This document shows positions 7,579-8,278 of a stretch of DNA of 64,000 bases, piece after piece. The notes below the pieces were generated by a model. It was given only the letters and a program-made list of their open reading frames with translations. It did no database searches and was not told the origin of the DNA. How positions within the stretch are numbered: position 1 is the stretch's first letter; each line of letters opens with the position of its first letter. The DNA is from Escherichia phage SholemSchwarzbard, in the sequence record PP925840.1; one strand, given 5' to 3'. The translations under genes and the position numbers were made by a program.

Positions 7579-7606
7579 TTTATTCTCCTCGGTAGTTGAT
7601 AGGGTA

Positions 7607-7636
7607 ATAGTATCACTACCCTATCTAAAAGTAAAC
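7607..7636 (-). promoter_or_regulatory. early promoter cassette P3 with inverted repeat across the -10
   Basis: Minus-strand -35 GTTTAC (7631-7636) and -10 TGn-TACTAT (7607-7612); 9-bp inverted repeat GATAGGGTA/TACCCTATC at 7598-7606 and 7617-7625. Confidence 0.6.
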
Positions 7637-7870
7637 TTATTTTTTACGAAAAATTGATTTATATTTATCAGCCCATTTCTCAATGACTTTTGCCGGGCCA
7701 TAGATAACAAAGTAATCGCCAAACTCTTCACCACCGAGTTGACCGAAATTATCTAATGCATCACGAAGAACTCCATGAGGCATTTCACCCATTTTATCTT
7801 TCTTGCCAGTGTAAATAAACTCAACTTTTACATCAGCAGTTTCAGCAATAAATTCTTGATACGTTTTCAT
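7637..7870 (-). CDS. capsid internal protein (77 aa) with T4 targeting sequence MKTYQEFIAE
   Basis: ATG at 7868-7870 preceded by GGAGA; N-terminus MKTYQEFIAE|T matches the recalled internal-protein targeting sequence and gp21 L/I-x-E cleavage context. Confidence 0.75.
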   Translation of the reverse strand: MKTYQEFIAETADVKVEFIYTGKKDKMGEMPHGVLRDALDNFGQLGGEEFGDYFVIYGPAKVIEKWADKYKSIFRKK

Positions 7871-7906
7871 TTTATTCTCCAATTTCACATTTGTTTTGAT
7901 AGGGTA

Positions 7907-7936
7907 ATAGTATCACTACTAAAACCCCGTGTAAAC
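7907..7936 (-). promoter_or_regulatory. early promoter cassette P2 (right inverted-repeat arm degenerate)
   Basis: Minus-strand GTTTAC (7931-7936) and TGn-TACTAT (7907-7912); left arm GATAGGGTA present, right arm replaced. Confidence 0.55.
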
Positions 7937-7948
7937 AACTTTGTGAAA

Positions 7949-8206
7949 TTATTTTAAATCTTCTAATCGTTTCTTCATCTTAGAACCATTTTTAGCGATT
8001 TCTCCTGCGTCAGAGCATAATGCTAAAAGTGCTTTAACTTTAGTTTGGTCTCCTTTAAAAGATGAAGGATCGACTGCAGCAGCAAGTTCTTTAATACGAG
8101 AGAAAAGACGCTCAGCTTCAGCTAAAGCCATTCCAAGCTTTACTTCCATACCATGAGAAGATTCAGTGATAGTAGTTTCTGTAGCAAATTCTTTGAAAGT
8201 TTTCAT
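7949..8206 (-). CDS. capsid internal protein-like (85 aa), targeting-sequence-like N-terminus MKTFKEFATE
   Basis: ORF track; AGGAAAA SD; N-terminal decapeptide related to MKTYQEFIAE. Confidence 0.65.
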   Translation of the reverse strand: MKTFKEFATETTITESSHGMEVKLGMALAEAERLFSRIKELAAAVDPSSFKGDQTKVKALLALCSDAGEIAKNGSKMKKRLEDLK

Positions 8207-8236
8207 TTTATTTTCCTAATTAATTTTGATGAGGTA

Positions 8237-8266
8237 ATAGTATCACTACCTCATCAGCATGTAAAC
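8237..8266 (-). promoter_or_regulatory. early promoter cassette P1 with inverted repeat across the -10
   Basis: Minus-strand GTTTAC (8261-8266) and TGn-TACTAT (8237-8242); 9-bp inverted repeat GATGAGGTA/TACCTCATC at 8228-8236 and 8247-8255. Confidence 0.6.
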
Positions 8267-8278
8267 AACTTTGTGAAA

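Follow-up and report, generated by a model that had tools for sequence, protein, structure and literature searches.

Intergenic repeats of the T-even ipI locus as probable early promoters, read-through RNA hairpins and recombination patches

Three copies of a promoter-bearing repeat lie among small genes in the 64,000-nt stretch of Escherichia phage SholemSchwarzbard analysed here (PP925840.1; the window), and in two of them the -10 element is embraced by an inverted repeat whose arms differ between copies and still match each other. What do these cassettes do, and what keeps their arms complementary? The cassettes are real, ordinary and already known, having first been described in 1994. Our reading, to which we assign a probability of about 0.8, is that these intergenic repeats of the ipI locus act as early promoter, read-through RNA hairpin and recombination patches.

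The repeats and their locus

The genome is of the Tequatrovirus (T4-like) type, with phage AndreasVesalius as the closest match (98%), and the cassette region is the hypervariable ipI (internal-protein, IP) locus of T-even phages. The gene order 57B, ip5, ip6, trna.4 is that of T6 and GiZh, and PHROG and Pfam matches concur (Table 1). Homologues of ip5 are annotated Ip5/ipV in T6, RB51 and GiZh, and those of ip6 are annotated Ip6/ipVI in T6 and GiZh; a capsid-targeting leader heads both products. The IP genes here adjoin the anti-CBASS gene acb1. The cassettes are read on the minus strand, which is the gene strand. They stand just downstream of 57B (acb1), one before each of ip5, ip6 and trna.4, so that single-gene modules (ip5 and ip6) are bracketed, as the preliminary description had proposed, and the third copy precedes trna.4 in T4 too.

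A search of the window for the 17-mer GGTAATAGTATCACTAC gave just three matches (plus-strand positions 7603, 7903 and 8233), a number reached in 0 of 100 shuffles, and a -35 and a -10 were found at each copy, which bears out the earlier claim of a promoter cassette in three copies before small genes. The spacer from GTTTAC is 18 nt, or 17 nt if the sigma-70 hexamer is taken as TTTACA/TTTACT, the extended -10 TGATACTAT ends at 8237, 7907 and 7607, and all three cassettes carry an RBS. A promoter consensus scan returned TTTACA-17-TACTAT with TG at copies C and B; the PST/T4 early-promoter consensus is TTTACW-N17-TAYWAT (Comeau 2014, PMC4122927). By consensus the cassettes are T4-type early promoters, presumably active and starting at the positions predicted in Table 1. 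The T4 RefSeq and MT984581 records hold no promoter features, and only a note in the T4 record bore on promoter status: it names the sibling promoter Pe133295, and that coordinate, 36 nt on from the G of the promoter's GTTTAC, is the A that follows its -10 by seven nt. The literature search gave no usable start-site mapping of ipI and no earlier account of dyad symmetry at T4 early promoters.

The extent of the cassettes had to be revised. The middle one, placed at 7889-7948 before, runs from 7871 to 7948, because ip6 starts at ATG 7870 (MKTYQEFIAE) and not at GTG 7888. The repeat is also longer than the roughly 60 bp first given: copies C and B have in common a stretch of about 28 nt ahead of the -35 that takes in the final codons of 57B/ip5 (76 nt at 84%), and the leader coding for the first 7-8 residues belongs to it as well. 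In cassette C the shared upstream block opens with the last codons and stop codon of 57B.

Table 1. Features of the ipI locus in the window; promoter elements and start sites are predictions
Feature	Coordinates	Strand	Details
57B = Acb1 (anti-CBASS phosphodiesterase)	8279..8734	-	Pfam PF23474, E 3e-60
Cassette C (57B to ip5)	8207..8278	-	-35 GTTTAC 8266-8261; ATG 8206
Cassette C arms (10 bp)		-	left TGATGAGGTA 8256-8247; right TACCTCATCA 8236-8227
Cassette C core	8246-8237	-	GTGATACTAT; TG 8245-8244, -10 TACTAT 8242-8237
Cassette C start and RBS		-	putative start A 8230; RBS AGGAA about 8217-8213
Leader coding region (capsid-targeting sequence), conserved	8183..8206	-	paralogous to 7848-7870
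ip5, internal head protein	7949..8206	-	85 aa, leader MKTFKEFATE; PHROG 3499, E 1e-49
Upstream homology block GATTTAAAATAATTTCACAAAGTT	7937..7964	-	common to 8267-8294; recombination substrate
Outer inverted repeat, cassette B	7881..7950	-	AATTTCACA 7950-7942 and TGTGAAATT 7889-7881; encloses whole promoter
Cassette B (ip5 to ip6), mosaic L-II + R-III	7871..7948	-	-35 GTTTAC 7936-7931; core 7916-7907; ATG 7870
Cassette B halves		-	left half ACGGGGTTTTAGTA 7930-7917; right arm TACCCTATC 7906-7898
Cassette B start and SD		-	putative start A 7900; SD GGAG 7880-7877
ip6, internal virion protein	7637..7870	-	77 aa, leader MKTYQEFIAE; PHROG 8111, E 1e-51
Cassette A (ip6 to trna.4)	7579..7636	-	-35 GTTTAC 7636-7631; core 7616-7607; ATG 7578
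Cassette A arms (9 bp)		-	left GATAGGGTA 7625-7617; right TACCCTATC 7606-7598
Cassette A start and SD		-	putative start A 7600; SD GAGGAG 7590-7585
trna.4 homologue, predicted membrane protein, served by cassette A	7393..7578	-	61 aa; PHROG 1692; T4 annotation of matching gene

Gene exchange at the cassettes and their relation to known elements

As expected from the modular shuffling that had been suggested, the genes between these cassettes vary among related phages, and breakpoints lie within the cassettes. From 0 to 4 different IP genes lie between 57B and trna.4: none in slur11, one in T4 (ipI), RB51 (ip5) and teqhal (ip6), two in the window and T6 (ip5 and ip6), RB14 (ip5 and ipI) and T2 (ip5 and ip7), three in RB33, and four in VEc74 and UFV-AREG1. 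Breakpoints fall at 7616-7619 (core), at 7636 (-35) and at 7846-7849 and 8183-8186 (leader), with further ones in the 7889-7964 / 8219-8294 repeat. Homology to T4, T2, RB14 and UFV-AREG1 stops at the two leader positions, the leader coding region of ip5 forming the 5' boundary of the exchangeable gene body, and the joint of the ip5 deletion in teqhal lies inside the repeat 7937-7964 / 8267-8294. Four types of left half and three of right half make up the 48 unique cassettes, in eight combinations, and in some common mosaics the hairpin is lost. Slippage products also occur inside cassettes, for example the duplication in L031. A scan of IMG/VR with the 16-mer core gave 57 loci, five of which were assigned to T-even phages by inspecting their contexts (L004, L012, L015, L018 and L031); the others were rejected on the same basis as chance matches, many of them within coding sequence.

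Repoila, Tetart, Bouet & Krisch (1994, EMBO J 13:4181) reportedly found elements of about 70 bp, each a promoter with an inverted repeat, flanking T-even IP ORFs and proposed that they serve recombinational shuffling. The window cassettes agree with what such elements should be. They lie in a T-even internal-protein locus (57B-trna.4, Tequatrovirus), flank ORFs with an IP leader (ip5 and ip6, the third copy standing before trna.4), carry by sequence a T4 early promoter (GTTTAC-N18-TACTAT, TGn) and have an inverted repeat overlapping it (10 bp in C, 9 bp in A, degenerate in B). They are homologous to the T4 cassettes at 73,939 and 73,572 and to T2/T6 elements; the T4 ipI and trna.4 cassettes share the core, which is identical in T4, T2, T6, RB14 and RB51, with near-identical halves. 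As cited in Arbiol 2010 (PMC2839356), the 1994 study saw 'PeSL-like sequences' at the two IP loci, which are summarized there as T4 early promoter-based, AT-rich stem-loops possibly responsible for IP shuffling. So far as PMC2839356 and PMC4122927 describe the 1994 repeats, the locus (57B to tRNA-side genes), the ORFs with their conserved leader, the T4 early-promoter sequence that flanks the IP ORFs on either side and is overlapped by an inverted repeat, and the proposed role are all the same, T4's own cassettes share the core exactly, and we see no essential difference; the ip5+ip6 arrangement was itself already known from T6.

The likeness to promoter-early stem-loop elements (PeSLs) noted in the preliminary description stands only as analogy. 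The PeSL authors themselves call the IP-locus elements 'PeSL-like', analogues and not homologues of PeSLs, without polyG/polyC stems (PMC2839356). Both kinds are intergenic, repeated and placed beside small variable genes, with indel or replacement breakpoints in the elements, and both combine a stem-loop with a strong early promoter, sigma-70-type by sequence in the window, that has an AT-rich upstream region (PMC2839356; PMC4122927). Formal membership fails, however, on the stem. The stem-loop of a PeSL directly precedes the promoter and is typically a G-tract/C-tract (AGNA-loop-TCNT in the PST/T4 pair), whereas the window stem embraces the -10 and the putative start site and its arms (TGATGAGGTA, GATAGGGTA) are AT-richer.

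Pairing across the -10 element

The inverted repeats were described as 9 bp long in two copies. Both are perfect, and their arms differ in sequence and remain complementary around the -10, but those of cassette C are 10 bp long. Hairpins of this size number 10 in the window, where about 3.7 would be expected, and from base composition the probability that two fall at one register of a three-copy repeat is about 2e-10. As RNA, cassette C folds at -17.4 kcal/mol (z -5.9), cassette A at -16.4 (z -4.5) and cassette B at -12.9 (z -2.6); the DNA folds are much weaker (-7 to -8 kcal/mol for 9-10 bp arms with a 10-nt spacer). In cassette B the right arm is present and the left half is not complementary to it in the adjacent register, so that the repeat is degenerate; an alternative two-part RNA stem would join GGGGU 7928-7924 to ACCCU 7905-7901 and UAGUA 7921-7917 to UACUA 7912-7908. 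This left half belongs to the common family L-II, which pairs in a shifted register (ATAGGGT/ACCCTAT in T4). Copy B was also considered as a recombinant with missing parent arms GGGGTTTTAGTA/TACTAAAACCCC, and no such cassette exists among 98 unique promoter 60-mers. The outer repeat around cassette B gives a 93-nt fold of -26.1 kcal/mol (z -5.2) and may be incidental, since it is lost next to other upstream blocks (L110, L115). Rfam covariance models gave no match in window positions 6600-9000 at E up to 1.

Stable RNA hairpins between cistrons (-16 to -17 kcal/mol) could be true terminators of upstream transcripts, which would make the cassette a terminator-promoter unit exactly like a PeSL, and PMC2839356 reports the RB49/phi1 PeSL stem-loops as effective terminators. 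We consider this improbable. Instead of the G+C-rich stem and U-run of a rho-independent terminator, the window stems are followed by AAAATTAATT and AACTACC, without any T-run or terminator tail, and a terminator scan returned nothing in the cassettes, so that the stems do not qualify as intrinsic terminators. Where the PeSL layout has its stem ahead of the promoter, the stem here overlaps the -10. Moreover, the locus has no late promoter inside it, so efficient termination would block late IP synthesis.

That compensatory arms imply pairing, as first argued, holds with a change of evidence. Within the IP cassette family the covariation consists of two arm haplotypes (AG/CT versus GA/TC) and is effectively one event. 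A structure-pair covariation score was matched in 0 of 500 shuffles, and we discount it because the sequences form two related haplotypes. Independent support comes from other promoters. Perfect stems of at least 7 bp span the -10 at 11 of 37 T4 early-promoter-like sites versus 5.9% of random windows, and the mean MFE at such sites is -9.2 versus -5.0 kcal/mol (p 4e-4); at about a third of the sites the arms are unrelated in sequence and yet embrace the -10. A second promoter family shows compensation too, the T4 promoters at 57,990 and 20,612 differing by a change from T-A to C-G, and the orthologous Mosigvirus cassette has different arms again, AGGATGAT/ATCATCCT. In cognate stems every one-sided change is a G·U on the gene strand, and the stem interruptions across 98 promoter-like 60-mers are 16 G·T, 1 A·C and 0 other, counts that include related sequences and represent about six independent families by our own grouping. 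Selection for pairing is thus supported, and the bias of the interruptions toward G·U on the gene strand points to RNA as the pairing molecule.

Arms of the kind that had been named as evidence against pairing, with non-compensatory differences, were found in part: the middle copy and many natural cassettes combine non-cognate arms. The mosaics L-II+R-I and L-III(A)+R-I fold no better than shuffled spacers (z -0.8 and +0.3), and the hairpin is therefore dispensable for at least some cassettes. They occur in about 300 and about 11 phage records, respectively; these counts come from 50-nt megablast queries at a coverage of at least 80% and are approximate, since the identity bands mix partial and full matches.

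The correction of quasi-palindromes by template switching is documented in the rII mutagenesis literature of T4. Intrastrand switching of this kind would copy a change in one arm into the other, so that mutation keeps the arms complementary and the repeat has no function of its own. The single covariation event, at two adjacent positions on both sides, the persistence of hairpin-less mosaics in many genomes and the slippage products within cassettes would all suit such a process. It leaves unexplained, however, the unrelated arms around the -10 in roughly one of three T4 early-promoter-like sites, and correction at the DNA level should give no strand asymmetry, whereas the interruptions stand at 16:1:0 with G·U on the gene strand. 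We therefore give it little credence.

No more persuasive is an action of the palindrome on DNA, in which a hairpin or cruciform, or a replication stall, creates a break hotspot (endonuclease VII or gp46/47) that drives shuffling. Breakpoints do cluster in and beside the palindrome core, but they lie equally in the non-palindromic upstream block and leader, so plain homology suffices; the DNA folds are weak, and G·T interruptions would destabilise a cruciform on both strands. An operator for a dimeric repressor, for instance for early-promoter shut-off, is very improbable: the dyad is centred on the -10, a classic repressor place, and reviews call the shut-off mechanism unexplained, but there is no common half-site, the arms differ completely (TGATGAGGTA, GATAGGGTA, ATAGGCTCAT, AGTTGACAAGATTA, TCCTAGAATTGTGA), the left arm occurs in at least three registers and the G·U bias is also contrary. 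The earlier preference for pairing over protein half-sites has thus gained independent support from the other T4 early promoters, the second family and the G·U bias.

A proposed role in transcription and exchange

In the reading that we favour, each cassette would provide a strong T4-type early promoter, with an AT-rich upstream block, -35 and extended -10, from which transcription would start at the A seven nt after the -10 and pass through a short A-rich leader into the RBS, so that each small gene would get its own immediate-early transcript. The inverted repeat would act as RNA. With the putative start site inside the 3' arm, the cassette's own transcript could not fold, and only RNA reading through from upstream would form the hairpin of 10-13 bp. 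Early read-through would come from neighbouring early promoters. Late read-through would come from a late promoter upstream of 57A, since the locus itself contains no such promoter; on the gene strand, TATAAATA occurs in this neighbourhood only at 9339-9332, upstream of 57A. The inferred role of the hairpin is to mark read-through RNA and insulate it between modules, whether through transcriptional pausing, through attenuation or by shielding RNA ends. Three patches of homology, namely the roughly 28 nt upstream including the -35, the 17-24-nt core with the right arm, and the RBS with the capsid-targeting leader, would be used by the T4 recombination machinery to delete, insert and swap IP genes, yielding mosaic cassettes.

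Along with its DNA the phage injects internal proteins, which act against host defences: IPI blocks GmrSD, and infection of ECOR17 requires IPIII (PMC9391042). Since every gene travels with a promoter of its own and is flanked by homology patches, the cassette arrangement would explain the quick swapping of the T-even anti-defence repertoire. The swapping role was proposed thirty years ago, and our finding adds no new kind of element.

Whether the IP cassettes are the most conspicuous members of a general T-even early control layer, of which we found no description in the literature, is a long shot. In that case the complementarity between spacer and initial transcribed region, seen at roughly one in three T4 early-promoter-like sites, would give an RNA hairpin found in read-through transcripts alone. 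The hairpin would systematically tell own-promoter from read-through mRNA through translation silencing, decay or transcription attenuation, and such hairpins might have a part in the rapid shut-off of early expression, for which there is as yet no explanation. Two points may interest specialists: unrelated inverted repeats span the -10 of many T4 early promoters, which is a quantitative result, and the interruptions that these stems tolerate are nearly all G·U when read on the gene strand. Both bear on what read-through RNA does in T4 early regulation.

A related form of control is known for T4 e, soc, 49 and I-TevI, where the promoter likewise lies within DNA encoding the 5' arm of a hairpin and read-through transcripts fold while promoter-proximal ones do not (reviewed in PMC3014915). 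Those promoters are late and the hairpin sequesters the Shine-Dalgarno/AUG, whereas in the window cassettes the right (3') arm ends 8-25 nt upstream of the Shine-Dalgarno, so translational masking cannot be its role here. Several sibling T4 early promoters do pair the spacer with the Shine-Dalgarno (vs.3, denV and the T4 sites 53,943 and 130,310), and there the pairing would silence translation of read-through RNA.

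Three early-promoter cassettes at the internal-protein locus

The 64-kb window contains exactly three copies of the 17-mer GGTAATAGTATCACTAC (+ strand 7603, 7903 and 8233), a count reached in 0 of 100 shuffles. Since the neighbouring genes are all on the - strand, the cassettes are to be read on that strand, where C, B and A precede the internal-protein (IP) genes ip5 and ip6 and the gene trna.4, respectively. The preliminary description of three promoter cassettes was confirmed by these copies and by perfect arms in C and A, with three corrections. The 9-bp stem proposed for two copies is correct for cassette A, but that of cassette C has 10 bp; cassette B has no repeat in the adjacent register; and the start of ip6, placed at GTG 7888, was corrected to ATG 7870. 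Hairpins of cassette-stem size number 10 in the window versus 3.7 ± 1.9 in simulated sequence, so a single one is unremarkable, while two at equal register of a three-copy repeat have a composition-based probability of approximately 2e-10.

Features of the internal-protein locus and its surroundings in the window
Feature	Position	Strand	Sequence or remark
Cassette C	8278-8207	-	...GATTTAAAATAATTTCACAAAGTT-GTTTAC-ATGC-TGATGAGGTA-GTGATACTAT-TACCTCATCA-AAATTAATTAGGAAAATAAA-ATG
Cassette B	7948-7871	-	...28-nt upstream block as in C-GTTTAC-ACGGGGTTTTAGTA-GTGATACTAT-TACCCTATC-AAAACAAATGTGAAATTGGAGAATAAA-ATG
Cassette A	7636-7579	-	...AAAAAATAA-GTTTAC-TTTTA-GATAGGGTA-GTGATACTAT-TACCCTATC-AACTACCGAGGAGAATAAA-ATG
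Perfect arms, cassette C	8227-8236/8247-8256		10 bp (repeat search)
Perfect arms, cassette A	7598-7606/7617-7625		9 bp (repeat search)
Putative transcription starts	8230, 7900, 7600	-	within 3' arm
57B	8279-8734	-	Pfam Acb1, PF23474, E 3e-60, anti-CBASS
tRNA gene cluster	5029-6623	-	ten tRNA genes
segB-like ORF	5846-6379		GIY-YIG homing endonuclease
Ribosome-binding site, trna.4	7585-7590	-	contains GGAG
Ribosome-binding site, ip6	7877-7880	-	contains GGAG
T4-type early promoter	2656-2685	-	short arms ATTAG/CTAAT at -10; T4 orthologue ATTAGA/TCTAAT
T4-type early promoter	3606-3635	-	no spanning repeat
Homology break	7616-7619		cassette core; T4, RB51, RB14, slur11, UFV-AREG1
Homology break	7636		-35 of cassette A; T2, RB33
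Homology breaks	7846-7849, 8183-8186		~23 nt into ip6, ip5 frames, leader end
Homology break	within 7889-7964/8219-8294 repeat		teqhal ip5 deletion

More than 600 Tequatrovirus records match the region, phage AndreasVesalius best (98%). On the - strand the order is gene 1 (dNMP kinase), 57A, 57B, cassette C, ip5, cassette B, ip6, cassette A, trna.4, trna.3, trna.2 and the tRNA cluster, with identical gene order in T6 and GiZh. The capsid-targeting leader of internal proteins opens the ip5 (MKTFKEFATE) and ip6 (MKTYQEFIAE) ORFs and no others in the window; the PHROG matches of the two are 'internal head protein' and 'internal virion protein' (E ~1e-50). The Acb1 gene 57B lies directly upstream of these injected internal-protein genes, and the two therefore form a small counter-defence cluster. 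The tRNA cluster, broken by the segB-like ORF, has a tRNA set different from that of T4 (for example, His, Asn and Tyr are present).

We put the probability that the cassettes are the known promoter/inverted-repeat elements of the IP locus at approximately 0.9. Repoila and colleagues, in 1994, reportedly described a ~70-bp flanking sequence in which an inverted repeat overlaps a T4 early promoter, said to adjoin ORFs bearing an 11-residue conserved leader. According to Arbiol et al. 2010 (PMC2839356), Repoila et al. saw 'PeSL-like sequences' at the two IP loci, an account repeated by Comeau et al. 2014 (PMC4122927). The element, its location, its tie to IP genes and the proposed shuffling role are thus all in the literature and already known. 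The analogy to promoter-early stem-loops (PeSLs) in the preliminary description, itself accurate, is one drawn by the field (Arbiol 2010, Comeau 2014). PeSL stem-loops lie immediately 5' of the promoter, and the T4/PST promoter consensus is TTTACW-N17-TAYWAT (Comeau et al. 2014). The T4-wide enrichment of -10-spanning repeats, the several left-arm registers and the G·U bias described below may go beyond these published accounts.

Module exchange and cassette mosaics

The modular shuffling raised in the preliminary description was examined in the locus of 15 phages, which carry different genes between like cassettes. The 57B-trna.4 interval holds no gene in slur11, ipI in T4 and NBG1, ip5 in RB51, ip6 in teqhal, ip5 and ip6 in the window, T6, GiZh and AndreasVesalius, ip5 and ipI in RB14, ip5 and ip7 in T2, ip5, ip9 and ip7 in RB33, and four genes in VEc74 and UFV-AREG1. 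Homology breaks, located using BLAST of window 7000-8900 against the fetched phage loci, fall in the core, the -35, the leader and the repeat. In RB51, the flanking alignments overlap by exactly 21 nt, the stretch common to cassettes A and B. The exchangeable unit is therefore a gene body, delimited by the leader at one end and the following cassette at the other. As the breakpoints show, the cassettes serve as homology patches for recombination, and each is also the predicted private early promoter of its module.

The phage loci, together with one scan of IMG/VR and one of metagenomes, yielded 48 unique T-even cassettes of this family. Their left halves are of four types (L-I, ...TGATGAGGTA; L-II, A[TC][AG]GGGTTTTAG[TC][TA]; L-III, TTTTA[GA]AT[AG]GGGTA; L-IV, ...AGGGTAGTAGT) and their right halves of three (R-I, TA[CT]CTCATCAAAATTAATTAGG; R-II, TACCCTATCAACTAC...GAGGAG; R-III, TACCCTATCAAAAC....), seen in eight combinations. 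R-I is the sole partner of L-I, and the two form a perfect stem of 10 bp; L-III(G) with R-II gives a perfect 9-10 bp stem. L-II (ATAGGGT/ACCCTAT, 18-nt loop) and L-IV (AGGGTAGTAGTG/TACTATTACCCT) use the same right arm in shifted registers, with MFEs of -13 and -15 kcal/mol; cassette B of the window is L-II+R-III (-12.9 kcal/mol, z -2.6). L-II+R-I (z -0.8) and L-III(A)+R-I(T) (z +0.3) fold no better than shuffled spacers. By 50-nt searches, which give approximate counts, these two are present in ~300 and ~11 records, and the two perfect types in ~313 and ~272. A working cassette therefore does not require pairing, and the preliminary description, which held that non-compensatory arm copies would refute its view, is in part contradicted by the non-pairing mosaics. 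Even in AndreasVesalius, the closest relative, the left half of cassette C already differs.

The L-II and L-III spacers (window 7930-7917 vs 7630-7617) look block-swapped (TTTTAG-ATAGGGT-A vs ATAGGGT-TTTAG-TT), as expected from tandem duplication and out-of-register deletion; both retain an arm complementary to ACCCTAT. In an IMG/VR locus (2706796299, ~2000-2061; L031), GATACTATTACCTCATCAA is tandemly duplicated so that the -10 and right arm occur twice, an example of slippage within the cassette.

Probable selection for pairing around the -10

Within the IP family, 88.5% of cells pair versus 31-62% with partners slid. As a formal test of the proposed covariation this is weak, and the three 'compensatory' pairs represent only two haplotypes. 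Stronger evidence is provided by the orthologue, other T4 promoters, strand bias and the stability of RNA relative to DNA stems. The orthologous Mosigvirus cassette has different arms (AGGATGAT/ATCATCCT), and unrelated arms surround the -10 of the T4 early promoters of e.7 (ATAGGCTCAT/ATGAGCCTAT), ipII (TCCTAGAATTGTGA/TCACAATTCTAGGA) and ipIII (AATTGTGA/TCACAATT), of T4 site 57,990 (AGTTGACAAGATTA/TAATCTTGTCAACT) and of the denV and vs.3 promoters. For arms this diverse, a protein operator is the less likely explanation.

Scanning the early strand of T4 (1-74,700 and 119,001-168,903) for GTTTAC-N18-TANNNT gave 38 sites, 37 of which were scored. A perfect stem of at least 7 bp spans the -10 in 11/37 versus 5.9% of 3,000 random windows, and one of at least 10 bp in 4/37 versus 0.1%; mean RNA MFE is -9.2 versus -5.0 kcal/mol (Mann-Whitney p 4e-4). 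The T4 promoters at 57,990 and 20,612 (loci L135 and L133) show clean T-A to C-G compensation (GACAAGATTA/TAATCTTGTC vs GACAAGACTA/TAGTCTTGTC). Both belong to a second and unrelated palindrome family.

One-sided variants in cognate IP stems are all G·U on the gene strand (TATCTCATCA, GATGGGGTA, GATAGGGTG). Among 98 unique promoter 60-mers, single interruptions between Watson-Crick pairs comprise 16 G·T, 1 A·C and 0 other, in at least six independent families by our own grouping. Such G·U pairs are tolerated only in gene-strand RNA; the opposite strand or a cruciform would contain an A·C or G·T mismatch. Two G·U pairs lengthen the RNA stems of cassettes C and A through the core to 12-13 bp, with folds of -17.4 and -16.4 kcal/mol (z -5.9 and -4.5) versus -8.1 and -6.9 kcal/mol as DNA. 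Although breaks do fall in the cassettes, a DNA hairpin acting as a recombination hotspot is less likely with this G·U bias, as is neutral upkeep of the repeat by templated quasi-palindrome mutation.

Two further T4-type early promoters in the window are listed in the table. In a metagenome contig (OGSC01000176.1, ~223, - strand; L122), 9-bp arms of unrelated sequence (AGGAAACTA/TAGTTTCCT) surround the -10 of GTTTAC...GTGATACTAT, and the promoter-in-repeat design may extend past T-even phages.

The RNA that would fold

One sibling promoter is called 'Pe133295' in the T4 record, and our scan puts its GTTTAC start at 133,331. If the name is the start coordinate, transcription would begin 36 nt on, at an A seven nt after the -10. 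The corresponding starts in the window would lie within the 3' arm, so that a cassette's own transcript would begin beyond the 5' arm and miss most of the 3' arm, and only RNA from upstream could fold. Internal proteins are head-core proteins of T4 head assembly, and the late-promoter motif TATAAATA is absent from the - strand between 57B and trna.4 (nearest upstream 9339-9332, within gene 1, upstream of 57A); upstream RNA must therefore exist late. The window has 24 such motifs versus ~9.5 expected.

We give even odds to the repeat being an RNA hairpin specific to read-through transcripts, providing intercistronic punctuation via attenuation, pausing or end protection. A true PeSL-like terminator would also use such a hairpin, but is less likely: U-runs are absent after the stems, and a terminator scan of the cassettes found no terminator. 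Rfam gave no match for the cassette region. T4 e, soc, 49 and I-TevI are documented cases of Shine-Dalgarno masking (PMC3014915). The layout of such masking is seen at some sibling early promoters, and the denV and vs.3 promoters have the Shine-Dalgarno sequence within the 3' arm. Direct masking is inapplicable in the window, where 8 to 25 nt separate the ends of the 3' arms from that sequence.

For T4 NC_000866 133300-133313 (14300-14313 of locus L134), the record notes 'inverted complement of previously reported sequence; corrects the early promoter Pe133295'. Those 14 bases coincide exactly with the loop ttgtgatattatag enclosed by the 7-bp arms GGTAGAG/CTCTACC of this promoter; an earlier reading therefore had the loop reversed, possibly through a sequencing artefact at the hairpin or a genuine flip.

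The ip6 leader carries AAAACAAATGTGAAATT (window 7881-7889), resembling the inverted complement of upstream block AATTTCACAAAGTTGTTT at 7942-7950; together they form a second, outer hairpin around the entire cassette B promoter (93-nt fold, -26.1 kcal/mol, z -5.2). Other upstream blocks (loci L110 and L115) also precede this leader and do not pair with it. The T4 endoribonuclease RegB cuts early mRNAs at GGAG, a motif present in the ribosome-binding sites of trna.4 and ip6; that of ip5 has AGGAA.
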